A stretch of DNA of 43,405 nucleotides, from IMG/VR virus record IMGVR_UViG_2563366824_000007. One strand, 5' to 3'. The position numbers and the translations under genes are program-made. The notes beneath the pieces were generated by a model that saw only the letters and a program-made list of their open reading frames with translations, did no database searches and was not told the origin of the DNA. The stretch's first letter is position 1, and each line of letters begins with the position of its first letter. The stretch comes from a virus (lineage: Duplodnaviria; Heunggongvirae; Uroviricota; Caudoviricetes). Below are positions 934 to 35,781 of this stretch, one piece after another.

Positions 934-1008
934 ATGGCGAGGGTTTAAGCAATCGAGCGGCAGCGTACTTACCCCGCAGTCCATTAGCGGGTATACTCAT
1001 GCCGCATT

Positions 1009-1083
1009 GTCCTCTTAGTTAAATGGATATAACGAGCCCCTCCTAAGGGCTAATTGCAGGTTCGATTCCTGCAGGGGACACCA
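1009..1083 (+). tRNA. argW: tRNA-Arg (anticodon CCU)
   Basis: 75-nt sequence GTCCTCTTAGTTAAATGG...GGTTCGATTCCTGCAGGGGACACCA; CCT anticodon in the CTCCTAA loop, T-arm GGTTCGATTCC, encoded CCA end. Confidence 0.92.
1069..1083. repeat. attL core, 15-bp CTGCAGGGGACACCA (3' end of argW)
   Basis: Exact 15-mer repeated at 41702..41716; integrase gene lies immediately adjacent. Confidence 0.8.
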
Positions 1084-1244
1084 TTTATCAGTTCGCTCCC
1101 ATCCGTACCAGTCCGCAAAATCCCCTGAATATCAAGCCTTCCGTATATTCACGGTTCGTCATGGTTCGCGTCAGATCGTTGACAGCCGCACACCATGACG
1201 GGTAAAAAGTGGATAAAATAATTTTACCCACCGGATTTTTACCC

Positions 1245-2402
1245 ATGCTCACCGTTAAGCAGATTGAAGCAGCAAAGCCGAAAGAAAAACCATACCGCCT
1301 TCTCGATGGTAATGGCCTGTACCTTTATGTCCCTGTATCCGGGAAAAAGGTATGGCAGCTTCGCTACAAGATTGACGGTAAGGAGAAAATACTGACCGTC
1401 GGAAAATATCCGCTTATGACTTTGCAAGAGGCAAGGGATAAAGCATGGACTGCGAGGAAAGACATCTCGGTTGGCATCGATCCGGTAAAGGCGAAAAAGG
1501 CTTCGTCTAACAACAATTCCTTTAGTGCGATTTACAAGGAATGGTACGAGCATAAGAGGCAAGTCTGGTCAGCCGCCTATGCGACTGAACTTGCAAAAAT
1601 GTTTGATGACGACATTTTACCTATCATCGGCGGCCTTGAAATTCAGGATATTGAGCCGATGCAACTGCTGGAAGTAATCCGCAGATTTGAAGATCGCGGG
1701 GCAATGGAGCGAGCCAACAAAGCACGCAGAAGATGCGGCGAGGTTTTCCGTTACGCTATTGTCACCGGAAGGGCTAAATATAACCCGGCACCTGACCTTG
1801 CTGACGCCATGAAGGGATACCGCAAGAAGAACTTCCCGTTTTTACCTGCCGACCAGATCCCGGCATTCAACAAAGCACTTGCAACATTTTCAGGAAGTAT
1901 CGTATCTCTCATTGCGACCAAAGTTTTACGCTACACAGCACTAAGAACAAAAGAGCTTCGTTCCATGCAATGGAAGAACGTCGATTTTGAAAACAGGATT
2001 ATCACCATCGAGGCCAGTGTGATGAAGGGACGCAAGATTCATGTGGTTCCGATGTCGGACCAGGTTGTTGAACTTCTCACTACGCTAAGCTCCATCACTA
2101 AACCAGTATCAGAGTTTGTTTTTGCCGGGCGCAACGATAAGAAGAAGTCAATCTGCGAGAACGCGGTATTGCTTGTGATCAAACAAATCGGCTATGAGGG
2201 TCTGGAAAGCGGTCACGGATTCAGGCATGAATTCAGCACAATTATGAACGAGCACGAATGGCCTGCTGACGCTATTGAAGTGCAACTGGCACATGCCAAC
2301 GGCGGATCTGTGCGTGGTATTTACAACCATGCTCAGTATCTCGATAAGCGCAGAGAAATGATGCAGTGGTGGGCGGACTGGCTTGATGAAAAGGTGGAGT
2401 GA
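1245..2402 (+). CDS. intS: P4-type tyrosine integrase (IntS-like)
   Basis: N-terminal arm-binding region and C-terminal catalytic motifs (HGFRH ... Y); sits directly 3' of the tRNA; track ORF begins at GTG 1209, in-frame ATG at 1245 preferred. Confidence 0.9.
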   Translation: MLTVKQIEAAKPKEKPYRLLDGNGLYLYVPVSGKKVWQLRYKIDGKEKILTVGKYPLMTLQEARDKAWTARKDISVGIDPVKAKKASSNNNSFSAIYKEWYEHKRQVWSAAYATELAKMFDDDILPIIGGLEIQDIEPMQLLEVIRRFEDRGAMERANKARRRCGEVFRYAIVTGRAKYNPAPDLADAMKGYRKKNFPFLPADQIPAFNKALATFSGSIVSLIATKVLRYTALRTKELRSMQWKNVDFENRIITIEASVMKGRKIHVVPMSDQVVELLTTLSSITKPVSEFVFAGRNDKKKSICENAVLLVIKQIGYEGLESGHGFRHEFSTIMNEHEWPADAIEVQLAHANGGSVRGIYNHAQYLDKRREMMQWWADWLDEKVE

Positions 2403-2551
2403 CCCACCTTAAATACCGAAGAGCACAAAGCCTTGCAATCCAGTGCAAAGCTTTGCGTACCAGAGTTTTTCCTCATCAACTACCGCAAGTATCGATCGAT
2501 TGAGACTTGGATGATAGACTTCATGCCTTTCAGAACTCATTGATTAAATAA

Positions 2552-2914
2552 ATGTTAAATATATTTGCAAGGTACACCTCGATTGGTGTGCTGAACACAC
2601 TTATACACTGGGTGGTTTTTGGTGTATGTATCTATGCCGCGCATACCAATCAGGCTCTGGCAAACTTCGCAGGTTTCGTTGTGGCTGTGAGTTTTAGCTT
2701 CTTCGCGAATGCAAAATTCACATTCAAAGCATCAACTACAACGATGCGCTACATGTTATATGTCGGGTTCATGGGAACACTGAGTGCTACTGTTGGATGG
2801 GCTGCTGATAGATGCGCACTTCCTCCGATGATAACTCTTGTCACCTTCTCCGCCATCAGCCTGGTGTGCGGTTTCGTCTATTCAAAGTTCATTGTCTTTA
2901 GGGATGCGAAATGA
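2552..2914 (+). CDS. gtrA: GtrA-family bactoprenol-linked glucose translocase (flippase)
   Basis: 120-aa small 4-TM protein, first gene of a three-gene operon next to int; overlaps the next gene by 4 nt. Confidence 0.85.
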
Positions 2915-3828
2915 AAATTTCTTTAGTCGTTCCGGTCTTTAACGAAGAGGCCACGATACCTATTTTTTATAAAACCGTGCGCGAATTTGAAGGGCTTCAG
3001 CAGCATGAAGTCGAGATAGTCTTCATAAACGATGGCAGCAAAGACGCTACAGAATCAATTATCAACGAGCTTGCTGTTGCCGACCCGCTTGTGGTTTCGC
3101 TGTCGTTCACACGTAACTTCGGCAAAGAACCTGCCCTGTTCGCAGGTCTGGACCATGCTACCGGGGAGGCAATTATCCCGATTGACGTTGATCTGCAAGA
3201 CCCTATCGAAGTTATTCCTCACTTGATAGAGAAATGGCAGGCCGGTGCAGATATGGTTCTGGCTAAACGCTCTGACCGCTCCACTGACAGCAGGCTGAAG
3301 CGTAAATCTGCTGAGTGGTTCTATAAACTTCATAACAAAATCAGCACCCCTCAGATAGAAGAGAATGTTGGCGACTTCCGGCTCATGTCTCGCGAAGTAG
3401 TGGAAAACATTAAGCTCATGCCAGAACGAAACCTGTTTATGAAGGGTGTGCTGAGCTGGGTTGGTGGTCGAACCGAAGTCGTAGAATATGCGCGAGCAGA
3501 ACGCGTTGCAGGAAGCACAAAGTTCAATGGATGGAAGCTCTGGAACTTGGCGCTGGAAGGGATCACTAGCTTCTCAACATTCCCGCTGCGCATGTGGACC
3601 TATATTGGGTTATTTATTGCATGTATATCATTTACATACGGTTCATGGATGATAATTGATAAATTAATTTTTGGTAATAATGTACCTGGATACCCTTCAA
3701 TTCTTGTATCAATATTATTTCTTGGCGGCATCCAGTTAATTGGTATTGGAGTGCTAGGTGAGTACATAGGGCGTATCTACGTTGAGGTTAAGCAGCGTCC
3801 AAAGTATATATTAAAGGATAATAAATAA
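2911..3828 (+). CDS. gtrB: GtrB-family bactoprenol glucosyltransferase (GT2)
   Basis: 305 aa with GT2-like N-terminal region (VVPVFNEE ... DGSKD ... DVDLQDP) and two C-terminal TM helices; stop overlaps the gtrC ATG. Confidence 0.9.
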
Positions 3829-5285
3829 TGATTTTCAAAAAACAAATTAAATTTATATTCGTAATTTTATTATTTGCGTCATTATTTATGCTATATCACT
3901 TTGCCAGCTTAAACATATTCCCACCAAATACAGATGCGGCAACAGTGCTTTTGCTTGGTAAGGATATGTCAGAAGGTAATTACTTACTTCATGGATGGAT
4001 GCTATCCACGGTTCCTTTTTACTTTACAGAAGTATCTTTTTATGCGATCGCCTCTATATTATTTGGCTACAGCAGTGAGCTTGCATATATAATACCACCA
4101 GCGATGTATGCTACTGTGATATTTTTGATATACAGGCTGTCTACAAATAAATCATTAGCATTAGCGCTAATTATATTCTACTTTGTTTTTCCTGCTGACA
4201 TGGCTGTTACATCAATGCTTTCAGCGTGCATTCACATGGGTACATACATATTTATCATTGGATGCTTAATATTTACAGAAAAGTATATTAAAACAGAAAA
4301 AATATTATTTGTATACTTTTCAACCATACTGTCCTCTATGGCTATTTTTAGCGATAATATCTCAGTCTATATATACGTTGCACCGCTAACATTAGCAGCA
4401 ATGTTTTTGTTGCACAAGGAAAGAAAAAAGAAATACCTTATTATAATGGCTGGATTGTTTTCTTCATATTTAATTTCCAAGGCGATCGGTTTTTTGTTTT
4501 TAAACCTTGGAAGCTTTACATTGCCAGGACTAACAGATGTAAAGATTGTTGAGTATGACAATATTTTAGTTAATATAAATACCGCAGTAAGTGGAACTTT
4601 ATTGTTTTTTAATGCAGACATATTTGGTGAGCAGATAACACCATCACTGCATCTATTATCTAAAGCAATACGCTTTGCTGGTGTTGTTGCATTAATTTAC
4701 TTCACTTTCAGAAATCTTTTTAAAAACAGAAGCGTTATTGATATATGTTTGTCATTGTCTATTTTAATCATGACATCTGCTTATATTGGTAGTAACCTCC
4801 CAAGAAATATATGGACAATAAGATACCTTGTTCCCGTCTTCATTATGGCAGTAATTCTTTTGTCAAGATCTAAATTTAATAAAAAAAGCATTATTTTATT
4901 AATAGCTTTTTTGGGCATCATATCAGGAATTAAAACAATAAATATTAATGGCTCCACTGATAATAGATACAATCAGATATCATGTATTAGAGAAAAAATC
5001 AACGAGCACAAAGTGAATTATGGATATGCCCCTTTTGCATTTACCAACTCTGTTGGTGTGAATGGAGACATAAAAATAGCAAATATACTTTTTGATAACA
5101 ATGAAATTAAAAGAGACAACTGGCTTACAAATAGCGAATGGTATAACAAAGGAAATAATTTCTTTATTCTTGAGAATAAAGAACAATTGAATATTGTGAA
5201 GAAAATTTATGGTCAACCTGAAGATATTGAAAGTGTGTGTGATGTGATTTTTGTCAAATACAGAAACCACATTTACGTCAAATAA
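3828..5285 (+). CDS. GtrC-type serotype-specific O-antigen glucosyltransferase (specificity unknown)
   Basis: 485-aa polytopic membrane protein in the third position of the gtr operon; AT-rich relative to flanking genes; translationally coupled to gtrB. Confidence 0.65.
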   Translation: MIFKKQIKFIFVILLFASLFMLYHFASLNIFPPNTDAATVLLLGKDMSEGNYLLHGWMLSTVPFYFTEVSFYAIASILFGYSSELAYIIPPAMYATVIFLIYRLSTNKSLALALIIFYFVFPADMAVTSMLSACIHMGTYIFIIGCLIFTEKYIKTEKILFVYFSTILSSMAIFSDNISVYIYVAPLTLAAMFLLHKERKKKYLIIMAGLFSSYLISKAIGFLFLNLGSFTLPGLTDVKIVEYDNILVNINTAVSGTLLFFNADIFGEQITPSLHLLSKAIRFAGVVALIYFTFRNLFKNRSVIDICLSLSILIMTSAYIGSNLPRNIWTIRYLVPVFIMAVILLSRSKFNKKSIILLIAFLGIISGIKTININGSTDNRYNQISCIREKINEHKVNYGYAPFAFTNSVGVNGDIKIANILFDNNEIKRDNWLTNSEWYNKGNNFFILENKEQLNIVKKIYGQPEDIESVCDVIFVKYRNHIYVK

Positions 5286-5557
5286 TTATTTTACCCTGAA
5301 GGAGAAGGTTTATTAAAAGAATTTTCCTTCAGGGTAACATGTATAAGTACATAAATTCGCTACATTTTCGCCTAATAATTTGTTTTACTTCAATGATTAA
5401 TAAACGAAAATAAATTTAAAGTCTAAGTATTAGTACCGTAAGCTCTTTTCCTCGTAGATGTGGTTATGTTCCACCAAACAGGAAGGCCGAGCGTTGTATC
5501 GTAGTATTCAACTGGCACAATTGAAGAGACAGGCCTCTGCGCAGTTGTACCATATAA

Positions 5558-12748: not shown

Positions 12749-12829
12749 ATCCCTATTCCCATCATTAAAGTATCGGACTAATCCTACCAAGAACCTGCTA
12801 AACGACAAAACCCGTGTTTAAGCGGGGTA

Positions 12830-14671
12830 TCAGCCCCCCATACCAAATCGGGTGTAGCCAACGTCGTGATTCACGTCGATACCGCTGGATCGCGTTTCCA
12901 TAACCCGCATACCCGGAGGCGAATTCACAAAAGAGACCTTGATCTCACCGTCAACTTTTGGCGCAGAAGCTTTGTTAATCATGAAGGGATTCGGGCCTGT
13001 GGCATCGGAGGCGTTGTTTGCCTGAGCCGGATCCATGGCCGGATAAGGTGTGTATCCCCGCGCCGGGAATCCCGTCCCATAAGCATCATAAGCACCCGCG
13101 CCCCACTGCGCAGAGTTAATGGCATCGACCGTGTCACCGGAACTGTCGGTAAACCACTCAATAATTGGCTTCAGCTTGTCCCACATATCCTGAAACCACT
13201 TAACAACCGGTCCCCAGTTATTGATTACCATCCCCAGCGGCGACCAGGCAAAAACCTTCTTCAGAAGTTCCCAGCCAGCCTCAAAATAAGGACCAATGGT
13301 TTCCCAGAGCTTCTTGAAATAAGGTCCGACAACATCCCAGTTAGTGATAATTAATCCCGCAGCCAGGGCTATCGCCGTCGCAATCATTCCAATCGGCGTC
13401 ATCGACATGATCCTGCTGACAATACTGATGGCCCCGCCAACGCCCATCAATCCCAGTTTCAGAATCGCAAGACCGGCAGCAAGCCCGACGACGCCGCGAA
13501 TAACCCGGGGATTTTCATCCGCAAACTTCGTGAATTTTTCCCCTAACTCCCCCAGCCATTGCGTGATATTTTTGGCGTCACCAGAAAATGCGCCGCCAAT
13601 AGCCGCAAGGCCGTTAGTTGCGGTCCCCGTCATTGCCTCCCACAGGTTGGACAGCGTACCAAGCTGGGCCTGAACACGTTTATTCAGGCTGGCCTGTTTA
13701 TTCATCTTCTGCTGGATCTGATCGTAGCCATCCTTTCCTTTATCGATTAGTGCATTGACCACCTGAAGGGTTTCGGCATCATCACCAAATATTGCCTTAA
13801 GTACACCTGTTCGCTTAACGTCGGTCAGTTTTCGCAGCTTTGCCAGTTGCCTGAACATGTTATCAAGACCGCCAAAACTTCCTTTGCCGTCAGTAAAATC
13901 GAGCTGTACCCCGAGTTTCTGGCGGGCCATGACTTTATTGACGTCCCTGATTTTCTTAACGCTTAATCCGGACTGGATAACTTTTCGCAGGGCATTACCT
14001 GCCGACTCCCCGTTCATCCCCATCTGATCCATCATGACGCTGATGGGGGCAAGGCTCTGTGCAGCCTGAAGACCCTCCTTGTTCACCATCTTCAGAACAG
14101 AACTGGTTTTAGTGAAGAAGGACAACATGTTGGTATCGTCAACGCCCAGATAAAACGCCTTCTGGATAGTGTCGAACAGCCCCATCATGTCTTCTGACGC
14201 CGTTCCGGTAGCATCCTGCATCTTTGCAGCAAACTCAGCAGCCGCTTCCGGTGTTTTTTTCAGTTGTACCGCAAGATAAGCTGTCGCTTTACCCACACCA
14301 CCCAGAATGTTTTCTGCCGGGATCCCCTGACGCACCAGCATCTGCATCATGTTCTGGAAATCAGCCGTTGTACCGGGTAGCTGGTTACCCAGACCAATAG
14401 CCAGTTTATTGATGTCCTGAAAGCTCTTTCCAACCTCGCCGTTCGCATCCATCATGGCGACTTTCAGCCCGGTGGCGGCGTTTTCCTGATCGGCATAAGA
14501 TTTCAGGGAAAGCGTCAGACCCGCAGCCAGTCCGCCACCAAGCGCCAGCCCACCCTGTGACGCTTCTTCCGCCTGGCGTTTAAATCCCCGGATTTTCTTT
14601 TGCATTTTCGACAGCGCGGGAGAAAGCCTGTCGACACCGGTGATCAACGCCTTAAGCTCAAATTCAGCCAT
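12830..14671 (-). CDS. Tail tape measure protein
   Basis: 613 aa, Ala/Gly-rich with helical N-terminus and hydrophobic central segment; downstream of the chaperone frameshift pair. Confidence 0.85.
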   Translation of the reverse strand: MAEFELKALITGVDRLSPALSKMQKKIRGFKRQAEEASQGGLALGGGLAAGLTLSLKSYADQENAATGLKVAMMDANGEVGKSFQDINKLAIGLGNQLPGTTADFQNMMQMLVRQGIPAENILGGVGKATAYLAVQLKKTPEAAAEFAAKMQDATGTASEDMMGLFDTIQKAFYLGVDDTNMLSFFTKTSSVLKMVNKEGLQAAQSLAPISVMMDQMGMNGESAGNALRKVIQSGLSVKKIRDVNKVMARQKLGVQLDFTDGKGSFGGLDNMFRQLAKLRKLTDVKRTGVLKAIFGDDAETLQVVNALIDKGKDGYDQIQQKMNKQASLNKRVQAQLGTLSNLWEAMTGTATNGLAAIGGAFSGDAKNITQWLGELGEKFTKFADENPRVIRGVVGLAAGLAILKLGLMGVGGAISIVSRIMSMTPIGMIATAIALAAGLIITNWDVVGPYFKKLWETIGPYFEAGWELLKKVFAWSPLGMVINNWGPVVKWFQDMWDKLKPIIEWFTDSSGDTVDAINSAQWGAGAYDAYGTGFPARGYTPYPAMDPAQANNASDATGPNPFMINKASAPKVDGEIKVSFVNSPPGMRVMETRSSGIDVNHDVGYTRFGMGG

Positions 14672-15438: not shown

Positions 15439-16934
15439 TATGCGGACTCCTCTGAATACTGAAGACGGAACTGGTTAACCACGGCAAAGACACGCAACTG
15501 GTTAACATAGTCAGGCGGGAACAGCGTGTTCAGGCGGTTCGGATCGCTGGCATCACGCTCCACAACCAGGTACTGCTTGAACAGTTCGTAGTTTTCCACG
15601 ATCCCCGCACGCTCAAGCTGACGGTAGGTTGCCAGCAGTTCCCCTTTGATCACCGCCGGGGTGACAATCGCCTGACCGGGACCAAAGCGGGTACCGTCAC
15701 TGGCAAGCTTGTGACGCCCGTACTTACTGGTAATGACGGATTTCAGTTTGCGCAGCACATACGCGCTGGTATGCAGCGTCTCGCTGTCGAGGTAGCTGTT
15801 ATCCGCAACCCCGTAAGCATTTTTCCTGTACGTGGTGACATCACGCTGAATGCGCAGTACCCCGCTTTCGACATACGCCGTTGCCACGCCATGAGACAGC
15901 AGGGTCTGCTGCTCGGTCATCGTGAACCGTTTCCCCTTCGGCGCAGGCAGCATACCCACCAGCTCACCGGTCTGCGTGGGACGTGCCGGATCGTTGCGGA
16001 TAAACACCGCTGCGCGGGCGGTACGGCTTGCCGCCAGCTCGTCGGCAGGTGTCTGGGTTTCTTTTTCGTACCCCGCCAGGGTAATGTGCTGCTGGTTAAA
16101 CTGGTCACCTGCGGTCACCAGTTCTGACAGCGTACCGGTCTTTGCCGTATACACATGACCATACAGCTGACGCGCATAGCTCCAGCGACCGCTGGTATCG
16201 TTCATCTCGGTCACCAGCGTGTTAACGGAGGCCGTGTCGTTGAACGGCAGACCGATATAATCAAACGGCTCATCCGCCATTGCAGCCACCGCACCGGTGA
16301 GAACAGGAGCGCCCGTTCCGGCGGTACCCGTCGCCACAGCAATCTGTACACCCGCTGGCAGCACTTCGCCCCCACCAAAGCCGTAGTAATTGAGGCTGAC
16401 AGGAATTTCATTCCCGCAAAGTCCCTTATGACGCGCGGTCAGTGTGACCACGCCAGCCGAAAATGAGGCCGTAAACGGCAGGGCCGGAACGGCATTGATA
16501 GCATCCTGGATACTGCTGGCAATGGTCGCGACGTTATCGCCGTTGGTCACCGGTGCCTGCACGCGGGTACGTCCCACATACACATTCACCGTGCCGGTTT
16601 CGGTTGCCGCCCCGGTCACCGTCAGAGTAACCGTTGCCGCCGCGCCTGTGGCTTCCGGAACGGCAATCACATACAGCTCGCCAAACGGGTCGGTCTGGCG
16701 ATAAGCCTCGACCATACGCGCCAGCTGACTTCCCGCACCACAAATCTGGCGTGCATAGTCTGCCGACGGCATCAGCACCAGACTGTTGGCAACAATCTCT
16801 GCACCGTTATTGGCGTGACCAATCAGCAACGATGCTCCGCTGTCCTGTGCAGTATTCGCCGCCTGGTTATCCATTTCCGCATAAAACAACGGAACCAGCG
16901 TATTCGACGGAATGGTGTTAAAGCTTATCGTCAT
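15438..16934 (-). CDS. Contractile tail sheath protein (Mu L-like)
   Basis: 498 aa; N-terminus MTISFNTIPSNTLVPLFYAEMDN typical of myovirus sheath proteins. Confidence 0.88.
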   Translation of the reverse strand: MTISFNTIPSNTLVPLFYAEMDNQAANTAQDSGASLLIGHANNGAEIVANSLVLMPSADYARQICGAGSQLARMVEAYRQTDPFGELYVIAVPEATGAAATVTLTVTGAATETGTVNVYVGRTRVQAPVTNGDNVATIASSIQDAINAVPALPFTASFSAGVVTLTARHKGLCGNEIPVSLNYYGFGGGEVLPAGVQIAVATGTAGTGAPVLTGAVAAMADEPFDYIGLPFNDTASVNTLVTEMNDTSGRWSYARQLYGHVYTAKTGTLSELVTAGDQFNQQHITLAGYEKETQTPADELAASRTARAAVFIRNDPARPTQTGELVGMLPAPKGKRFTMTEQQTLLSHGVATAYVESGVLRIQRDVTTYRKNAYGVADNSYLDSETLHTSAYVLRKLKSVITSKYGRHKLASDGTRFGPGQAIVTPAVIKGELLATYRQLERAGIVENYELFKQYLVVERDASDPNRLNTLFPPDYVNQLRVFAVVNQFRLQYSEESA

Positions 16935-17088
16935 CGGTATTCACCTTTTTATTCACGCGCCGGATATCACCCGCTGCTTCACGGCGCAGCCAGTAGTTGT
17001 TCTCGTCAACATTTCGCCCTTCGGCGGGCAAAAGGTCGCCGCGGGCAGGGTCAGGCACTGACCGCCCTTTAACAGGTTTCACAAACAT
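16918..17088 (-). CDS. Small basic protein preceding the sheath gene (Mu gp38-like position)
   Basis: 56-codon ORF MFVKPVKGRSVPDPARGDLLPAEG... with GAGGA ribosome-binding site; below the ORF-track length cutoff. Confidence 0.4.
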   Translation of the reverse strand: MFVKPVKGRSVPDPARGDLLPAEGRNVDENNYWLRREAAGDIRRVNKKVNTDDDKL

Positions 17089-17096
17089 GAGGATCC

Positions 17097-18913
<1,817 letters not shown>

Positions 18914-27159: not shown

Positions 27160-27603
27160 CTAATATGAACACTGTGATCTCACATATTCTTGCAGGCCAT
27201 TCAATTGGTTAGTTATGGTTTCGATGCGCTCTCTGAGAACGAAATAATCCCGTTGAGCGGTGTCAGTAAGTCTGGGGCTGGAAGCATCATCCACGCCGGA
27301 GGCGGCGGTGGTTTTATGCTTGTCCGGACAGACTGCTTTGACGTGCAGCCACTTACGACCAGCAGAAACATCAGCACGAAGACTTTCGATAGTCGCGTTA
27401 GCATCAGCAAGCTCCTTTGTGTATCTGGCGTCGAGTTCAGCTACATCATGTTGACGCTTCTGCATGTCAGCGATGATGGATGTGGCTTTGTCGCGCTGTT
27501 CTTTGTAGGTCATGGCGTTATCACGGTAATGATTAACAGCCCATGACAGGCAGACGATGATGCTGATAACCAGAGCGGAGATAATCGCGGTTACTCTACT
27601 CAT
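27160..27603 (-). CDS. Rz-like i-spanin
   Basis: N-terminal TM anchor followed by coiled-coil periplasmic domain; ATG 27603 overlaps the endolysin stop (ATGA); contains the embedded Rz1 frame. Confidence 0.75.
27213..27404 (-). CDS. Rz1-like o-spanin (lipoprotein, embedded in Rz)
   Basis: +1-frame ORF inside Rz; [20 protein letters not shown] lipobox signal and proline-rich mature part (PPPPPAW). Confidence 0.7.
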
Positions 27604-28097
27604 TGTTGCCCCCACAAACAGACTTCACGCTCAATCTCACGGCGAGTCATCAGCCCTTTCCATTGCTTACCGCCAGCGTATGTCCAGCGCCGTAGCTGAT
27701 CACATGCGCCTTTGATATCGCCCTGGTTTATTTTGCGAAGAAGTGTCGATGTTCTGAAATTTCCAGCACCAACGTTGTAAACGAACGAGTAAAGAGCGCC
27801 GCGCGTTGTTTCCGGTATATCGACTTTGATGTACGGGTTAATTTGTCTGGCGACAGTGGCAAGGTCTTTATTCAGGAGGGCTTTGCATTCTGCTTCGGTA
27901 TACGTTTTACCGAGCATAATGTCTTTTCCGGTATGCCCGTAACATACAGTCCATACACCAACGATATCTTTATATGGTATGTAGCTGACGCCTTCCAGAC
28001 CATCGTTACCACTTGGGCCAGTGATTAACACAGATGCTATAGCAATAGCCCCGCCACCAATAGCCGCAGCAACGGCTTTTCGTAATGATGGAGGCAT
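27600..28097 (-). CDS. SAR endolysin (phage-21 R-like lysozyme)
   Basis: 165 aa; N-terminal weakly hydrophobic Gly/Ala-rich signal-anchor-release domain followed by a lysozyme-like region (E-D-T motif area); directly follows the pinholin. Confidence 0.85.
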
Positions 28098-28312
28098 TAT
28101 TCACCTCTCGCAGCCTTGCGCTTATCTTCTTTAATCTTGAAATAAAGGTTTGTCAGGTACGTCAGCAGGCCAAATACCAGGCTACCCAGCACACCTATTG
28201 CTGCCCACTGTGAGGGCGTGACTTTATCGAGCAGCTGTAAAAACCAGTAGCCAGCACTGCCTGCGGAGGTGCCGTAGGCAATGCCCGTTGTTAACTTATC
28301 CATAGATTTCAT
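28097..28312 (-). CDS. Pinholin (phage-21 S-like class II holin)
   Basis: 71 aa [26 protein letters not shown]... with two TM domains, dual-start motif (Met1/Met4) and C-terminal KAARGE. Confidence 0.85.
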
Positions 28313-28500
28313 AGCCTCACCTCCGCAAATAACGGATGGTGTACACGGTTCGGAACGAAGAGGAAAGGTATAGAAGTTACATTAGCGTAAGGCTTGAACA
28401 TCTATTCAAAAAGAAAAACGCCAGCGATTATTCTGGCGTAGCTGAAAGCATCATACAATTATCAAATACGAAAATTACAAAATCATTAAAACGCATCACG

Positions 28501-29232
28501 TTACATCATGTCTTTTTCTAAAAAAAATCTTGATGAATATTGATGGGGAGGAACACCAAAATATCTTCTGAAAACACTCACAAAATATGACGTGTTTTCA
28601 TAACCGCATATCTCAGCAACTTTTCCAACAGAATATAAATTGTAACTTAATAACCTTTCCGCCATCACCATTCGCTCTTCAAGAATTAACTTACTAAATG
28701 ATAAGCCTTCGTGCTTTAATTTTCTTTTTAACAGACTTTCACTCAGATACAGTCTTGAAGATATATCACAAAGTCTCCATGCTGCAGATATATCCGTGTG
28801 AATAATAGCCTTAACTTTACTTCCTAAACTATTAAGACATCCAAATAAAAAACTTTGCACTATTTTCTCTGAAGATAAGATAGCAAGACATGCAAGTGAT
28901 ATTTGATTTCTAACAAAATCCACAGTTCTGCCATCACAATTCAAGCATGCAATCAAGTTCTTTAACAATGAAAAATCTTCACATTCCACCATCAAGTATG
29001 CCGGATAAAACCTTCTTACAGAAAAAGGTGAGAGTGTGTTGCTTTTAAAGAAATCATTAACTGTTTTCTCTTCAACATCTACGATCATTACATGATCTAT
29101 ATTTGATGAAAAAAAATCTTTTAAATTGTAATCAATGAGAACAGCACTTCCTTTTTTAAACAAAATATCTTCTTTACCAATTCGGACATCAAACGAGTTC
29201 AACACCAAAATGATAGAACATATGTATGGCAT
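28501..29232 (-). CDS. AraC/XylS-family transcriptional regulator
   Basis: C-terminal AraC-type HTH (...GKVAEICGYENTSYFVSVFRRYFGVPP...); very AT-rich; ATG at 29232 with AGGTGG ribosome-binding site preferred over track GTG 29241. Confidence 0.8.
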   Translation of the reverse strand: MPYICSIILVLNSFDVRIGKEDILFKKGSAVLIDYNLKDFFSSNIDHVMIVDVEEKTVNDFFKSNTLSPFSVRRFYPAYLMVECEDFSLLKNLIACLNCDGRTVDFVRNQISLACLAILSSEKIVQSFLFGCLNSLGSKVKAIIHTDISAAWRLCDISSRLYLSESLLKRKLKHEGLSFSKLILEERMVMAERLLSYNLYSVGKVAEICGYENTSYFVSVFRRYFGVPPHQYSSRFFLEKDMM

Positions 29233-29583
29233 ATTATCCACCTGATATCATTGGGGTTACACCAGGTAAGTATAGGTGGAAAATCAATATTCGCCAGTTC
29301 AACAATAAGGAAAATTTCATTGCATCACAAGTATAAAATTATGTATTTAACTCACAAAGACAAATTATTAAACCAATCTGTTATATTATATATAGCTGCG
29401 TGGAATCATAATATTATATATTTTGACTGGCATGTTTACCAACTTTAAGTTGCATCTCAATTGTTTCTTCAGCGTAAACAGAGTTTTTATACAAACTGAC
29501 ACTCTGGGTATCATAGTGTAGTTTTTACGATTGTAAATATCCTGCATGCAGGAACTCATCCTTTTGGATGATATCGCATACAA

Positions 29584-30543
29584 TTAATTTACCATCAGTC
29601 TTAGAGCCAGTTCGTCCGGATAGGGATCGAAGTAATTCTGTGTAAGCAAGTAATCATTAGGATACTCACCCAGATAATGCTTCAGCAGAGTCAACGGCGC
29701 AAGAAGAGGTAATGTGCCAGAACGATAGTTAAGTATAACCTCGCTCAACTCTTTACGCTGGCGTGTACTTAAGTAGTTACTAAAATACCCCTGTATATGC
29801 ATCAGCACATTCGTGTGATTTTTACGTGATGCAGGTTTTCTGAGAATCGCCATCAGCTTATCACGATACACCTCAAAGTATGATTCAAGGTCCGCCCACT
29901 CGTGTATTGCAGCCACAAATGGTCCCATATCTTTATAGCCTGCCTGACTATGCGCCAACAACTGAAGCTTATAACGACTATGAAAAGCTAATAACTCTCT
30001 TCTTGATAATTTCTCCTTGTAAAGGTGATTGAGCTCATGCAAAGCAAAAACTCTTTCAACAAAATTCTCACGAAGCACTGGATCATGTAATCGCCCATCC
30101 TCTTCAACCGGTAGCCAGGAAAACTTTTCCATCAAAGTACTCGTAAATAGTCCCACTCCATCTTTACGACCTCGATTACCATTTTCATCATAGACACGCA
30201 CGCGCTCCATGCCACAGCTGGGAGATTTAGCACAAACCACAACCCCCGATACATCCTTTAATTTGTCCATATAAGAACGACTAAACTCTGTCATTCTCTC
30301 TGTCACATCCTCATTCTGGTCGTGGCTGAAACACATCCGTATATTTCCTTGCGTCGAGCGCACAAGACGTAGAGCAGGACGCGGAACTGGCAGCCCTATA
30401 GCCATTTCCGGACATACTGGTCTGAATGTTACCCATTCCACTAATTTGTCCATTAAAAAGTCAGCTCTTTTGTGACCACCATCAAAACGAACAGCAGAAC
30501 CGGCCAAACAACCGCTGATTCCAATCACAGGTTTTTTTATCAT
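29584..30543 (-). CDS. DUF523 (TudS-like) - DUF1722 (YbgA-like) fusion protein
   Basis: 319 aa; N-terminal Cys-containing motifs (GISGCL ... CPE ... CAKSPSCG) consistent with a TudS-type Fe-S domain, YbgA-like C-terminal half; GGGGGAG ribosome-binding site. Confidence 0.65.
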   Translation of the reverse strand: MIKKPVIGISGCLAGSAVRFDGGHKRADFLMDKLVEWVTFRPVCPEMAIGLPVPRPALRLVRSTQGNIRMCFSHDQNEDVTERMTEFSRSYMDKLKDVSGVVVCAKSPSCGMERVRVYDENGNRGRKDGVGLFTSTLMEKFSWLPVEEDGRLHDPVLRENFVERVFALHELNHLYKEKLSRRELLAFHSRYKLQLLAHSQAGYKDMGPFVAAIHEWADLESYFEVYRDKLMAILRKPASRKNHTNVLMHIQGYFSNYLSTRQRKELSEVILNYRSGTLPLLAPLTLLKHYLGEYPNDYLLTQNYFDPYPDELALRLMVN

Positions 30544-30735
30544 ATTCTCCCCCTTGACTAATTCATTAACACATAAACTGTGTAGTGCACGGAATAAATT
30601 GCCTTTCTGGCGTCATCACTGACAATTTTTCTGTTATGGACTATTCCTAATATAGTATGAAAGTTCTTTAAGTGATCGGTCGTAATCATCTATCTTTCAT
30701 ACTTACTCTCAACTATCAAAAGTACAGGATTTATT

Positions 30736-31260
30736 ATGAAGTTATGGCCTGTGTTGACTGGCATTGCACTCTCTTTCACTCTTATAGCATGTAAGGCCCC
30801 GACACCACCTAAAGGTGTGCAGCCGATTACAAATTTTGACGCCAACCGCTACCTCGGAAAATGGTATGAAATAGCTCGCCTCGAGAACCGGTTCGAACGT
30901 GATCTGGAACAGGTCAGCGCTACTTATGGAAAACGGAACGACGGAGGGATTCGTGTACTTAACCGTGGATACGATCCAACGAAAAATAAATGGAGCGAGA
31001 GCGAAGGTAAAGCATACTTTACTGGAGATACTAAAACTGCAGCATTGAAGGTTTCGTTTTTTGGCCCCTTCTATGGTGGCTATAATGTAATCAAACTGGA
31101 TGATGAGTATAAGTATGCTCTTGTCAGTGGTCCGAACAGAGAATACCTATGGATTCTGGCAAGGACCCCAACTATTCCAGATAAAGTAAAAGCAGACTAT
31201 GTGCGAACCGCTCAAAAGTTGGGATTCAATGTCAATGAATTATTATGGGTTAAACAATAA
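30736..31260 (+). CDS. blc: Outer-membrane lipocalin Blc paralog
   Basis: 174 aa; lipoprotein signal (LIAC) and lipocalin motifs (NFDANRYLGKWYEIARLENRFER ... FFGPFYGGYNVI ... YLWILAR) closely resembling E. coli Blc. Confidence 0.85.
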   Translation: MKLWPVLTGIALSFTLIACKAPTPPKGVQPITNFDANRYLGKWYEIARLENRFERDLEQVSATYGKRNDGGIRVLNRGYDPTKNKWSESEGKAYFTGDTKTAALKVSFFGPFYGGYNVIKLDDEYKYALVSGPNREYLWILARTPTIPDKVKADYVRTAQKLGFNVNELLWVKQ

Positions 31261-31288
31261 AATCCCTACCCGAAATAATACTTATTAG

Positions 31289-31315
31289 AAAAAAACCAGC
31301 CTTTGGGGAGGCTGG
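31289..31315 (-). terminator. tR'-like intrinsic terminator downstream of the late promoter
   Basis: Minus-strand hairpin CCAGCC-loop-GGCTGG followed by a 7-U run; about 60 nt downstream of the putative late start. Confidence 0.55.
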
Positions 31316-31374
31316 CTAAATCAGGAAACAAGCTGTTATATGGTAATAACTACGTTGCGATTCCAACATTTAAA

Positions 31375-31403
31375 ATGTTAGACTAATGACAATCAGACAG
31401 CAA
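31375..31403 (-). promoter_or_regulatory. Putative Q-dependent late promoter (PR'-like)
   Basis: Minus-strand TTGCTG -17 nt- TAACAT beginning 13 nt after the Q stop codon. Confidence 0.4.
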
Positions 31404-31415
31404 CTTTTCCTTTAA

Positions 31416-31793
31416 TTATTTCGAACAATCAGCATCCATCTCCAATCGGAGATCCAACACCATCAGCATACCCTCCACTACGCCCTCAGCTTTCTGGAGC
31501 ATCCTGCCAACCCAACAATCAGATCGCCCATGCTTACGTGCAAGCGCCATAAAAGTCATGCCGCCGACATAATAGTCCACCAATAAATCATGCAAATCGC
31601 TGTTGTTCTTTTTCAGACGGGCCATGCACCCGCAAATGATCATCGCGTCATCGTCACAACATTGTGGGCGAGATTTTACTTTTGAAGGAATTAATCCCTT
31701 AAAACCGGCGGCAATGGACGACCAGGTCACATCTTCATGATTATTAGCCGCCCACGCTCCCCAACGCTCAAGAACCATCTGAATATCACGCAT
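31416..31793 (-). CDS. Antitermination protein Q (QuuD-like)
   Basis: [33 protein letters not shown]... with Cys cluster ([12 protein letters not shown]), recognised as DLP12 QuuD-type Q; ATG 31793 preferred over track TTG 31808. Confidence 0.75.
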
Positions 31794-31810
31794 CAACTTT
31801 CTCCACAAAA

Positions 31811-32806
31811 TCAGGCCAGCACGCCAGTTGCCAGCGCACGATCGATAAAACGAAATATCAACTCCAGCTGGGAGCCATACTTCTCTTCAAATGCCGCGGT
31901 ATCCGCATGCAGCTCGTCGTGATGCTTTCTGCACAAAGGCAATACAAAGAGGTCATGCGCTTTTGTACCCATTCCGCCCTGACCGTGGCCTATCAGGTGG
32001 TGGGGATCATCAGCAGGCTTTCCACAACATGCACACGGCTGTGTCTTAACCCAGCGCGTGTACTTTTCGTTAACCCAGCGGCGACGTTTTGGGCGTAACA
32101 TAAAAGACTCCGGCGACTCCGGATCCACTTTCAGCGCCAGCACCTTTTTCACTTTATCCTGGATGATGCTGGTGGCAGGAACCGAAGGAACAAGGTCACT
32201 TTCCCGGGTGACAGACGGCACAACAGGCTTCGGTAATCTCAGTGCCTTACGGGCTGCACTTTCCGGCAAGGCTCCCGCCAGGTCATTACGAACCAGCCAC
32301 CAGCACAGTTCCGGCATTGTCACAACGTGACTGTCATCAAAACCGAGATCCCGACGCACAACAGACAACACCCAGCGGGCACAGTTATCCGTTGCCATTG
32401 ATTCCAGCCGTTCCGTGAACTGATCGCGCAGCTGGTTATCACAGTGCCAGCACAGACGGATTGCACCCGGCGCGTGTCGCATTGTGGTCATGTTCTCGCT
32501 GTGCCAGTCGGAATGAGGCCACTGGCAGCCTTTTTCACGAAGTAACCAGCTTTCAAGACATTCCACGCCACCAGCACGACGGATCACTGCCTCATTGCGG
32601 AACACGGCCCGAACGGCAGGATCATCCGCCAGCGGTTGTGATACCGCCGGAACGGCACCACTGGCGAAAGATGAATAACGCTCCGGCTCAGGCTCCAGCA
32701 GGACACGCCCCTGCATAAACAGGGGCATCAGCTCTGAACCGGGTCTGAACAATACGATCCCCATACGCGGGGCAATTTCAGGGGTCAGTAGTGCTCTCAC
32801 GGTCAC
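31811..32806 (-). CDS. DUF968-like protein with C-terminal Cys/His cluster (putative nuclease)
   Basis: 331 aa; C-terminal CxxC ... HHLIGHG ... CRKHH motif; start uncertain (track GTG 32806, in-frame ATG 32764). Confidence 0.6.
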
Positions 32807-33636: not shown

Positions 33637-34026
33637 TCAGGCGGCTGCACCCGCCGTTTTCTCGTACTTACTGATAGTTATCTCGACCTTCCCTTCCGGG
33701 ATAACCGGTCCCCACTCCACCAGCATTCTTTTCACCTGGCTGTCGTCTTCCCACACACCCGCGTGGGTCAGGGCGTCAAACAGCGCCTTGTTATAGTTGT
33801 CCAGATCGCGGATCCGGTTATCCGGAGGAAACAACACGATCTCCACTGAAGCAGGTGCCGACGTTGGTTTTGGCAGACGACGTAACTGCTCAACTATTGC
33901 TGCACACGCCGCGCTCTGGAATTTTCGCCCCGCCGCGCTTATCAGGCTCTTACCTGCAAACGCCCCTTTGTTGGGGTGTCGCCAGTACGTGTTCACGCTG
34001 GGCGGAAAAGGCAGTATCAGCTTCAT
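33637..34026 (-). CDS. rusA: Holliday junction resolvase RusA
   Basis: 129 aa with RusA hallmarks (PPSVNTYWRH ... RDLDNYNKALFDAL ... DDSQV). Confidence 0.85.
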   Translation of the reverse strand: MKLILPFPPSVNTYWRHPNKGAFAGKSLISAAGRKFQSAACAAIVEQLRRLPKPTSAPASVEIVLFPPDNRIRDLDNYNKALFDALTHAGVWEDDSQVKRMLVEWGPVIPEGKVEITISKYEKTAGAAA

Positions 34027-34349
34027 ACTTTCAGGCCTCTCTCATGTAACCAGTGAGCTGCACGCAGCCTGGCGTTCACCTCACCGGCAAGCAGTGCGCG
34101 GATAATCCCGGCCGCCTCGCTGTCGTCGTCCTTCACTGCGGTATAAAGCGTGATACCCCGGGCCACACCACGCTTTATCGTGATGACGCCTTTTTTCTCC
34201 AGAGCTCGAAGATGCTCCACCGCTGCATTCACTGAACGGTATCCCAGCATGGTTGCCACCTCCTGATTGGTTGGCGGGAAGCCACGTTCTTTCTGATAAG
34301 AAATCAGCATATCCAGCACCTGCTGCTGGCATTGAGTTAACGTCGTCAT
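34023..34349 (-). CDS. LexA-like winged-helix DNA-binding protein
   Basis: Resembles the LexA N-terminal domain (QQQVLDMLISYQKERGFPPTNQEVATMLGYRS...); ATG 34349 preferred over track GTG 34382. Confidence 0.55.
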   Translation of the reverse strand: MTTLTQCQQQVLDMLISYQKERGFPPTNQEVATMLGYRSVNAAVEHLRALEKKGVITIKRGVARGITLYTAVKDDDSEAAGIIRALLAGEVNARLRAAHWLHERGLKV

Positions 34350-34837
34350 TAAGCCCCCACGTAATTCCCTGACAGATACCACTCATCACCCGATGCAGCG
34401 CGCTTGCTGCTTTTCCGTAAGCACCGCTCACGACGCGCAAGAAAATTGTTTCGCTCTTGCTGGGAGTGGCTTTCACGGAATGCCGCCATCCACACCGTTG
34501 CAGCACGACGGTATAAGCCCCTTGACTCCAGTTCTTCAGCCTGGCGGGTCAGGCACAAAATCACCCGGAGATCGTTAGTGCCGACATAGAAATTGCGCAC
34601 AGGTCTGGTTTCACGAACTGGTTGTGGTTCCGGCTCCTGCGCTCTCTCAGTCAGGCGCGGGAAATGTCTGCGTGTATCTCCTTCACAACGGTGAGCCACA
34701 CGCCCACTCTGACGTAACTTGCTTGCTGACTGCAGAACGCGCTGCCGTGAGTAACCTGCAAAAGCATCCGCAACGTCTCCGGAAGTACACCCCGGATGGG
34801 CTTCAATGAATTTCTGAACGTCATTTAACAGACTCAT
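34349..34837 (-). CDS. Hypothetical early protein, possibly DNA-binding
   Basis: Basic Arg-rich ORF translationally coupled in the early operon; ATG 34837 preferred over track GTG 34843. Confidence 0.5.
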   Translation of the reverse strand: MSLLNDVQKFIEAHPGCTSGDVADAFAGYSRQRVLQSASKLRQSGRVAHRCEGDTRRHFPRLTERAQEPEPQPVRETRPVRNFYVGTNDLRVILCLTRQAEELESRGLYRRAATVWMAAFRESHSQQERNNFLARRERCLRKSSKRAASGDEWYLSGNYVGA

Positions 34838-34839
34838 GA

Positions 34840-35781
34840 TCACCCCCTGAATCCTGCCGGGATCTGGCTGTAGTCCACGTTGTCGTAACTGGATTTGAAG
34901 TACGGGTCTTCGCGTTTTTCGGTGTACGTGCTGACGGACGGTGATAAGCGCAGGGAAAGCTCATCCCATTTTTCCCGCAACTTCGACGGGCTGAGCACGT
35001 TACGGCACCAGAACGGATCGCGGTTGACGCGGCTGTACATCTCGCAGATTTGTTTGTGAGTACGACCATCCTGCACACACATCAGGCGAATTTCGTTTGC
35101 CCAGGCTGTCCAGTTCGGTTCTTTGGGACGAACCACCTCGCCGTCACATTCGGCGGCCTGCTCGTACAGGGCGATGATTTTTTTCCAGAGCCACTGTGCG
35201 CAGGTCAAATCATCCTGCGTTCCCCACTGGCGCTTTTTAGGGCTGAATACAACCGCATCAGGATGGCGAGTTAAAAACTCCTGTTCAGCCGTCTGCGTGT
35301 CCGGTTGCGAAGCGTCCGGACGAGAAGTATTTTTATCTGACGGATCATGTTTTGATTTTACTGACGGATCCCCGCCAGATTCTGACGGGTGAAAACCCGC
35401 TTTTTTGCCAGATTTCGACGCATCAAATTTTGACGGGTCAGATTTTGATGCGTCAGATTTTGACGGGTCAGAATCTGACAGTTGAGAAAATGCCGCTGCC
35501 TGAAGCTTCGCAACGTTAAGCTGATAAACATTCGACGCATTGCGGTTACCCTGGCGACGCGCCTTACGCGTTAACCAGCCTTCTGCTTCCAGCCGTGCGA
35601 TAGCCGTTCTGACGGTACTCATCCCCGCGCCAATCTGGCGGGCAATGGTTTCAATTGATGGCCAGCACACACCTTCGTCATTACTGAAATCAGCCAGGCG
35701 GGCCATAATTGCCACGCTGGATAACTTCATGCCTGATGCAGCGCAACCATCCCATACATAGCCGGTTAATTTAGTGCTCAT
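34840..35781 (-). CDS. Replication initiation protein (lambda O-like organiser)
   Basis: N-terminal HTH region, central repetitive linker (DPSKSDASKSDPSKFDASKS) encoded by iteron-like DNA repeats, conserved C-terminal domain. Confidence 0.75.
   Translation of the reverse strand: MSTKLTGYVWDGCAASGMKLSSVAIMARLADFSNDEGVCWPSIETIARQIGAGMSTVRTAIARLEAEGWLTRKARRQGNRNASNVYQLNVAKLQAAAFSQLSDSDPSKSDASKSDPSKFDASKSGKKAGFHPSESGGDPSVKSKHDPSDKNTSRPDASQPDTQTAEQEFLTRHPDAVVFSPKKRQWGTQDDLTCAQWLWKKIIALYEQAAECDGEVVRPKEPNWTAWANEIRLMCVQDGRTHKQICEMYSRVNRDPFWCRNVLSPSKLREKWDELSLRLSPSVSTYTEKREDPYFKSSYDNVDYSQIPAGFRG
35351..35482. repeat. Iteron array (putative replication origin) inside the O-like gene
   Basis: About 7 tandem ~15-bp units of consensus CAGATTTTGACGGGT, e.g. 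35375..35390, 35424..35438, 35439..35453, 35454..35468. Confidence 0.7.

Follow-up and report, generated by a model that had tools for sequence, protein, structure and literature searches.

What fills the slot between the late antiterminator gene Q and the lysis genes in the Caudoviricetes prophage IMGVR_UViG_2563366824_000007, a slot where other lambdoid phages carry stx or nmpC, where did its content come from, and what does it do for phage or host? A preliminary description of this 43,405-nucleotide (nt) stretch of DNA, hereafter the window, had singled out an AT-rich island at this junction with genes for an AraC-family regulator, a DUF523-DUF1722 fusion protein and a lipocalin, and had suggested that it is a regulator-controlled stress or anti-defence cargo. 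We consider it probable (roughly 70%) that the island is a mobile three-gene moron cassette in the Q933/DLP12-type lambdoid slot, composed of a lipocalin-rudS pair of enterobacterial chromosomal origin and a separately acquired AraC-type gene. The feature is already known in its essentials, since near-identical phage copies are public, the RudS enzyme was characterised in 2024 and the lipocalin gene blc was noted in phages in 2020.

A three-gene cassette between Q and the holin gene

By the list of open reading frames (ORFs) and Pfam, the interval from Q to the holin gene consists of three ORFs, namely a lipocalin gene on the plus strand and, on the minus strand, a DUF523-DUF1722 fusion gene (rudS) and an AraC-type gene (araC). 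As the late genes of the prophage occupy the minus strand, rudS and araC lie in the sense direction of late transcription and blc antisense to it. From Q towards the lysis genes, the features are:

31416 to 31793, minus strand: late antiterminator Q (Phage_antitermQ, PF06530, E=2.5e-51), 125 amino acids (aa) from the RefSeq ATG; the ORF extends to 31808
30736 to 31260, plus strand: blc-like outer-membrane lipocalin lipoprotein, 174 aa (PF08212, Lipocalin_2, E=1e-43)
30544 to 30735, between the strands' divergent genes: blc/rudS intergenic region, holding the block TACTATATTAGGAATAGTCC (30638-30657)
29584 to 30543, minus strand: rudS, TudS(DUF523)-DUF1722 fusion (PF04463 and PF08349), predicted tRNA 4-thiouridine desulfidase, 319 aa
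29233 to 29583, minus strand: spacer of 32% guanine plus cytosine (GC) upstream of the AraC-type gene, with the promoter-like sites TTGGTA-18-TATAAT (29442-29413) and TTTACA-16-TATGAT (29537-29510), which are consensus matches only and no more numerous than in shuffled sequence
28501 to 29232, minus strand: YdeO/AppY-like AraC/XylS regulator, 243 aa from the RefSeq start at 29232; the ORF reaches to 29241
28097 to 28312, minus strand: holin of the EssD / P21 S type, first lysis gene (PF04971, E=2e-35; RefSeq essD)
27600 to 28097, minus strand: phage lysozyme (Pfam)

GC content falls to 30-44% over 28500-31500, against 52-58% on both flanks. The cassette as delimited below (28324-31433, 3.1 kb) has 38.0% GC, compared to 52% for the prophage, and of all 3.1-kb segments of the 43-kb window just 0.9% have GC this low, every one of them in the gtr O-antigen cassette at about 2.3-3.6 kb. 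Composition is uneven also inside the cassette, with 32% GC in araC and its upstream region and 43-44% in rudS and blc. Thus, the GC profile and the Pfam-defined flanks confirm the preliminary description's roughly 3 kb of AT-rich DNA at the Q-to-holin junction, and its assignment of the three genes to the AraC family, the DUF523-DUF1722 fusions and the Blc-type lipocalins proved right in domain searches.

The analogy drawn there with stx and nmpC regions is likewise correct, the order being quuD-nmpC-essD in the DLP12 prophage of Escherichia coli K-12 and Q-pR'-terminators-tRNAs-stx2AB-S in phage 933W. Window Q is 87.5% identical to K-12 QuuD (DLP12) and 80.8% identical to the Q of the Stx2 phage 933W, and the window shares with 933W and with the nmpC-carrying DLP12, mEp332 and Kati an 81-88% identical Q, a leader with promoter and terminator, a few kb of cargo and a holin gene. 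With the nmpC phages the likeness extends to identical flanks and to orientation, blc like nmpC running against the late transcript. The cargo itself is unrelated to both stx2 and nmpC, and a tRNA scan found no tRNA genes in the island, unlike in Stx phages. An Rfam scan of 27900-32000 (E<=1) gave only sub-threshold chance matches, the best being a terminator hairpin itself.

In mEp332, Kati and DLP12, homologous Q and holin flanks enclose nmpC/OmpD as cargo. Their similarity to the window breaks off 11 nt ahead of the holin ATG, at 28323, and is regained at 31434, within the last codons of Q; since the DNA shared with the nmpC phages stops and resumes at these points, we take 28324-31433 to be the exchangeable unit. 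This unit contains, besides the three genes, a short leader past Q, and is slightly wider than the limits of 28313-31288 that had originally been drawn around the island.

The fusion protein as RudS

RudS has been defined as a TudS-DUF1722 fusion that removes 4-thiouridine (s4U) from tRNA (Jamontas et al., Nucleic Acids Research 2024, PMC11417400). In the window protein, PF04463 (2-thiouracil desulfurase/DUF523) covers residues 7-149 (E=6e-40) and PF08349 (DUF1722) residues 192-309 (E=2e-40), and over all 319 aa the protein is 93.1% identical to RudS_vir (H3V29_gp66) of phage 1H12, one of the six enzymes tested in that study. The cluster ligands Cys12, Cys44 and Cys110 are present, at the same positions as in RudS_vir and RudS_ST (PMC11417400 Table 1), and C12 and C44 align with C10 and C43 of TudS (structure 6Z92). 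Catalytic residues E51, R60, S111 and S113 were defined by mutagenesis in RudS_KT (PMC11417400); in the window protein, C44-P-E46, R55 and S107-P-S109-C110 stand at matching distances from the Cys ligands. An alignment with TudS 6Z92 pairs E46 and R55 as well, while both Ser residues are assigned by spacing alone. With RudS_vir the protein thus has in common its length, both domains, the three Cys ligands and the catalytic Glu, Arg and Ser. As far as sequence can test the defining features of the enzyme, all are present, and we assign the 319-aa protein to the RudS family.

The function is supported by published biochemistry. All tested RudS variants lowered tRNA s4U in E. coli, and overexpressed RudS_KT lessens UVA (long-wave ultraviolet) growth delay (PMC11417400). 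The earlier guess at a thio-nucleotide desulfidase with TudS-like Cys motifs was therefore right, given these results for the 93.1%-identical RudS_vir.

A strong RNA hairpin spans the end of the gene:

29529 to 29596, minus strand: hairpin across the rudS stop codon, with no U-tract

The surrounding 29480-29600 folds at -36.9 kcal/mol (z = -5.5), a value that none of 200 shuffles equalled. A second hairpin, also lacking a U-tract, follows at 29493-29524 on the same strand. The hairpins could be a stabiliser of the 3' end or a processing site.

The lipocalin and the origin of the blc-rudS pair

The lipocalin reaches 314.5 bits over the full length of the NCBIfam Blc model NF007786 (cutoff 267), matches PDB Blc chains with E=1e-67 and has the lipobox L-I-A-C19 with Lys at +2. 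By this score above the curated cutoff and the lipoprotein signal, we assign it to the Blc family. The Lipocalin_2 fold and the lipoprotein signal are shared with chromosomal Blc of K-12 (b4149, adjoining ampC), to which it is, on the other hand, only 59% identical, compared to 79-81% identity to the rudS-linked lipocalin of Enterobacter, Leclercia and Citrobacter chromosomes. Because of this difference the gene is not an E. coli duplicate, and the "second copy" of Blc that it had been called is instead a paralogue of the rudS-linked lineage. Prophage and host Blc being distinct, lysogens have two lipocalins.

As a phage gene this lipocalin has been seen before. Mathieu et al. (2020, PMC6969025) count blc, in the passages of that paper retrieved here, among the morons that over half of 19 gut lambda phages carry. 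The window lipocalin is 96.6% identical to the copy in 1H12, and phage 1H12 belongs to the same LR59xxxx series of lambda-type records that carry the cassette, which we take to be the collection of Mathieu et al.; on that basis the moron of the retrieved passages is the same phage gene.

Relatives outside phages were sought in one genome per bacterial species, which yielded 64 chromosomal rudS loci. RudS homologues with 66-76% identity are found on chromosomes of Citrobacter, Enterobacter, Leclercia, Kluyvera, Klebsiella, Lelliottia and Pectobacterium, and roughly 40 of the 64 loci have, upstream of rudS and divergent from it, a lipocalin gene whose product shares about 80% identity with the window lipocalin. 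In Enterobacter the two genes are separated by 1.45 kb that encode, from blc to rudS, a MerR-family regulator whose helical and C-terminal domains are of the MlrA type and then a transthyretin-like protein, an arrangement that matches the MerR-linked RudS noted in E. cloacae and Salmonella (PMC11417400). The RudS of E. cloacae is discussed in the same paper, and STM1389 of Salmonella is ORF319. Citrobacter sedlakii has blc and rudS directly adjacent, 188 bp apart, compared to 192 bp in the phage.

The phage intergenic region retains a trace of the chromosomal arrangement. TACTATATTAGGAATAGTCC, which contains the inverted repeat ACTAT-N7-ATAGT and was also picked up in a repeat search, is homologous to ATTCGTAGTATATTGAGAnTATTCC. 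In an alignment of the DNA upstream of blc, nearly all of the chromosomal loci, about 40, have ATTCGTAGTATATTGAGAnTATTCC conserved directly ahead of the MerR/MlrA-like gene. The phage block is thus a candidate for an orphaned operator or promoter element. Cross-talk with the host regulators BluR or MlrA found no support, as the Enterobacter MerR-like regulator is only 36-40% identical to them and the block is absent from the bluF-ycgZ intergenic region.

The phage and chromosomal loci thus have in common the divergent gene pair and the block, with 79-81% identity for Blc and 66-76% for RudS. They differ in that the phage lacks the MerR-like and transthyretin-like genes, has 43% rather than 47-62% GC, has gained an AraC-type gene and sits in a Q-dependent late operon. 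On these comparisons we trace the blc-rudS pair to a chromosomal locus of enterobacteria, from which the phage copy kept the upstream block but not the genes for the MerR-like regulator and the transthyretin-like protein. The preliminary description would have been undermined by the three genes being common chromosomal neighbours elsewhere; this holds for two of them, blc and rudS.

Among the chromosomal copies, rudS of Citrobacter murliniae (CP163158.1) has a low GC content (47%, compared to 50-62% in the others). It may have been horizontally acquired and may be closer to the phage donor lineage.

The AraC-family regulator

The third protein has a C-terminal double helix-turn-helix (PF12833, HTH_18, and PF00165, HTH_AraC; residues 161-237). 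It matches the NCBIfam YdeO model over its full length, but with 127.3 bits against a cutoff of 348, and stays below other equivalog cutoffs as well (HilD 86.8 vs 354; GadX 85.5 vs 500); phrog_1450 is hit with 360 bits. Identity to AppY is 31.8%. Relatives with 52% identity occur in the lambdoid phages mEp332 and ev099, at other positions and without rudS or blc, and more distant ones in phages of Shiga toxin-producing E. coli (STEC). Homologues are essentially restricted to E. coli and its phages: in a search of a large protein collection the named relatives were from E. coli only, the rest being metagenome or assembly entries, and none had a named function.

With AppY (DLP12), PatE and PsrB of enterohaemorrhagic E. 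coli (EHEC) and the host proteins YdeO, GadX and GadW, the window protein shares AraC-family membership and a length of about 245 aa; the prophage-encoded ones also share its setting in AT-rich accessory phage DNA. Unlike these AppY-type regulators, it is encoded at the Q-S junction and not at a prophage end, and it falls below every equivalog cutoff. AppY, PatE and PsrB control acid-resistance regulons according to the literature. Since the window protein is a relative and not an ortholog of YdeO/AppY, no such regulon can be transferred to it.

No AraC homologue was found at any of the 64 chromosomal rudS loci. This absence, together with 32% as opposed to 43% GC, marks the gene as a separate acquisition, and the island as a composite of a captured blc-rudS pair without its own regulator and an unrelated AraC-type gene. 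The same two facts leave the proposal of a regulator-controlled island unsupported.

Control elements of the late region

Three further elements complete the layout:

31375 to 31403, minus strand: candidate late promoter pR', TTGCTG-17-TAACAT, weak sigma-70-like hexamers just past the Q stop
31294 to 31317, minus strand: intrinsic terminator, candidate tR', a 9-bp stem with 5 GC pairs, then T7
28418 to 28439, minus strand: intrinsic terminator past the AraC-type gene, a 7-bp stem with 5 GC pairs and a T-rich tail

The hexamers of the candidate pR' were read off the sequence and are below the threshold of the promoter scan. They are placed relative to Q as is the putative pR' annotated in 933W, although the sequences do not align; nor could the region after Q be aligned with those of 933W, DLP12 and mEp332 in a search for pR', except for a short ATATAACAG common to the nmpC phages. 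The pR' assignment is accordingly tentative. About 55 nt beyond the hexamers follows the candidate tR', in a leader region with a fold z of -4.15, and the second terminator (28439-28418) lies about 105 nt ahead of the holin start. Both terminators are kept in the 1H12 and IdasGreatGrand alleles. In the 933W record, a putative pR' overlapping the end of Q is followed by a qut site, terminators, tRNA genes and stx2AB, with the holin gene 5 kb on. That late transcripts must cross the island to reach the lysis genes, as the preliminary description held, fits the gene order and the two terminators, while the position of the promoter is only inferred.

No LexA box (CTGT-N8-ACAG, at most 1 mismatch) was found in the intergenic regions of the island; its sole match lies within the rudS coding sequence and has a mismatch.

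Distribution and selection

By megablast against complete E. coli genomes (n=5426), rudS was found in 1136 (about 21%), the phage blc in 1135 and the AraC-type gene in 1034, and the whole segment from Q to lysozyme is unbroken in 979 of them. Twelve sequenced phages have the cassette, including IdasGreatGrand and the 1H12 group. The DNA of IdasGreatGrand is 98% identical over 27340-31835 and different beyond; for the 1H12 group identity is about 88%. Phage 1H12 has the same slot (Q-blc-rudS-araC-holin) and the same neighbours, but the window backbone differs, being a prophage integrated at argW, with a myovirus-type tail and insertion sequence (IS) damage, and the cassette is of another allele class. 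Among 80 IMG/VR contigs, the order Q, blc (reverse), rudS, araC, holin, lysozyme is identical in 73. Of the seven exceptions, four break off behind blc-rudS or araC, apparently where the contig runs out, two have a split AraC or Q match, and in the last an AraC match is lacking although holin and lysozyme are there.

Between the window and the 1H12 allele class (DNA identity 92% in rudS and 87% in araC), the ratio of nonsynonymous to synonymous substitution rates (dN/dS) is in the range seen for the lysis genes, with 0.07 in blc, 0.11 in rudS and 0.26 in araC, which places all three under purifying selection. Distribution, fixed order and dN/dS together identify the cassette as a stable selected unit that moves between backbones with its Q and holin flanks.

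Two occurrences stand apart. In the E. coli B/BL21 records NZ_CP010816.1 and NZ_CP083273.1, the rudS match of BL21 (TaKaRa) ends after the initial 147 nt, or about 49 codons, and a full-length phage-type blc is present in BL21-RIPL; laboratory strains of the B lineage thus seem to have a truncated remnant of the cassette. Contigs JARKOR010000151.1 and JARKOR010000135.1, binned as a 'Candidatus Nanosynbacter' metagenome-assembled genome, hold the cassette (Q, blc, rudS, araC, holin, lysozyme) with 93-100% protein identity, which is almost certainly binning contamination.

Proposed role and alternative explanations

We tentatively favor a role in lysogenic conversion for UVA tolerance, at somewhat less than even odds. 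The cassette fills the exchangeable stretch from Q/pR'/tR' to the lysis genes, which in other phages holds stx or nmpC. RudS, a predicted [4Fe-4S] desulfidase, would turn s4U at position 8 of host tRNA back into uridine, and with s4U the tRNA would lose the near-UV chromophore that cross-links it and thereby brings on a stringent response and delayed growth. Less s4U, be it in lysogens or after induction, should mean less UVA cross-linking, shorter growth delay and less ppGpp (guanosine tetraphosphate). The lipocalin, going by its family, would be an outer-membrane lipid-binding lipoprotein, and the AraC protein would most likely join host stress regulons in the manner of AppY, PatE and PsrB, again to judge by family only. 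In the lysogen, the terminators at both ends may insulate the cargo from the lysis genes, with the cargo probably driven by its own promoters; upon induction, Q-modified RNA polymerase would read through the 3 kb, in the sense direction of rudS and araC and antisense to blc, much as through stx2 in 933W. The net effect would be that lysogeny confers tolerance to UVA and photo-stress on E. coli lacking RudS.

Several observations speak against parts of this account. The promoters in the island are weak consensus matches, not commoner than in shuffled sequence. The phage rudS and blc have 43% GC, compared to 47-62% in every sampled chromosomal homologue, and among the sampled species representatives the best rudS identity is 76% and none has less than 47% GC, so that no donor was found there. 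In the published assay, RudS_vir was well expressed but brought tRNA s4U down by less than certain bacterial RudS enzymes did, and on free 4-thiouracil its lag was the shortest (PMC11417400); both leave some doubt about the substrate it prefers in vivo. Moreover, with an IS3-type insertion and a tail-sheath pseudogene the prophage looks defective, so a lytic-phase role could not operate here.

Such a lytic-phase role is nonetheless the nearest competitor, if a good deal less probable. RudS would then be mainly an auxiliary made in bulk after induction, often by UV, whose erasure of s4U keeps tRNA chargeable and damps ppGpp, so that late phage proteins can be made in irradiated cells. The co-orientation of rudS and araC with late transcription between tR' and the holin gene agrees with it, as do the match of the layout to stx2 in 933W, with its homologous Q, the lessened UVA growth delay upon RudS overexpression (PMC11417400) and the loss of the cognate MerR-type regulator from the phage copy. 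However, the island holds no LexA box or other induction-linked element, blc runs antisense to late transcription, and purifying selection on the cassette is seen in functional as well as defective prophages, which fits a benefit in lysogeny. A sharper version, in which RudS freed of MerR control is made at induction from the Q-dependent promoter and strips s4U from host tRNA as an epitranscriptomic tool, appears to us unlikely. We know of no described case of a temperate coliphage with a tRNA-modification eraser as a lytic-phase auxiliary gene, no literature search having been made for one. The lysogenic-conversion and lytic-phase roles are not mutually exclusive.

If the AraC protein instead were a dedicated local regulator of blc and rudS, replacing the MerR type in a self-contained stress operon, one would understand why the three genes are nearly always together in a fixed order and why the phage cassette has no counterpart of the ancestral MerR/MlrA-like regulator. 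This we hold to be rather improbable, as the AraC-type gene is absent from all 64 chromosomal loci, differs in GC (32% vs 43%), has its own upstream region and terminator, and has relatives (mEp332/ev099 52%, AppY 32%) elsewhere in phage genomes lacking rudS and blc. The araC upstream region and the blc-rudS spacer also have no convincing motif in common, a repeat search between them giving only short AT-rich matches of chance quality. A defence or anti-defence cargo, acting for example by altering tRNA so as to escape or trigger tRNA-directed immunity, is far less probable still. Its appeal is positional, lambdoid accessory slots often holding such genes, and RudS does act on tRNA (PMC11417400), but the pair stems from a housekeeping-type chromosomal stress locus and not from a defence island, and a PADLOC scan (E<=0.01) matched no family with any of the three proteins. 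Owing to that empty scan we dropped the defence reading, and the suggestion of anti-defence cargo in the preliminary description stands unsupported. Position 8, where s4U is found, lies moreover outside the anticodon loop; the tRNA-cleaving defence nucleases PrrC and RloC cut within that loop. Equally improbable are decaying passengers without current function, carried along by a successful Q-S module. Remnants do exist, such as the blc and the rudS stub of about 49 codons in E. coli B/BL21 and the IMG/VR contig without an AraC gene. All three ORFs are nevertheless intact in the window, around 1000 genomes keep all three genes, allele classes with 5-13% DNA divergence give dN/dS values of 0.07-0.26, and the close RudS_vir allele is enzymatically active (PMC11417400); the selection data already largely refute this explanation.

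The surrounding prophage

The prophage is integrated at tRNA-Arg(CCU) (1009-1083); intS and a gtrA/gtrB/gtrC-like cassette for O-antigen modification lie in the same part (920-5300 of the window). The gtr cassette is the other AT-rich trough of the window, with 30-36% GC at 3500-5500. The tail genes are of myovirus type. A 1258-bp insertion with IS3-type InsE/InsF-like ORFs (17334-18591) breaks a tail-region gene and is absent from the two closest genomes, which in turn carry IS421 at a site matching 12825-12836. The tail-sheath gene (about 16698-18194, interrupted by the IS3-type element) is annotated in RefSeq as a pseudogene with an internal stop in a near-identical prophage. This copy of the prophage is probably defective, in which case any benefit here must come in lysogeny.

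The early region encodes, besides CI/Cro, a PerC-family regulator and a short LexA-like repressor (34023-34382 and 34349-34843, minus strand), the PerC-type protein being a candidate for a further host-directed regulator. The deletion-primer arms for orf10 of prophage phiv142-3 of avian pathogenic E. coli (APEC), known from the literature, do not match the window.

Relation to published work and significance

The combination of genes had been called not a described phage module. As concerns the parts this no longer stands, with blc listed as a moron in the retrieved passages of PMC6969025 and a phage RudS tested in PMC11417400; it does stand for the combination, as the three genes are not linked in those sources. 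The RudS paper mentions no prophage, AraC gene or lipocalin in its text. In the papers searched, i.e. the text of PMC11417400 and the retrieved passages of PMC6969025, we found no description of the three-gene unit as such, of its descent, minus the regulator, from a MerR-controlled chromosomal locus, of its placement behind an Stx-type Q, or of the AraC-type gene as a separate acquisition.

The value of the finding lies mainly in annotation and context. The cassette illustrates how a chromosomal stress pair may be captured, lose its regulator and be put into a late operon, at the very slot used for Shiga toxin. The RudS study states that E. coli lacks RudS and uses this to explain differences between species in the recovery from UVA (PMC11417400). 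Contrary to that statement, about 21% of the complete E. coli genomes carry RudS and, with around one in five genomes RudS-positive, differences among E. coli strains in tRNA s4U, UVA growth delay and the stringent response may follow prophage content. The AraC-type regulator could rewire host acid and stress regulons, as AppY, PatE and PsrB do. Lastly, phages 1H12 and IdasGreatGrand offer a tractable system in which to ask whether a tRNA-modification eraser is of benefit to a phage or its lysogen.

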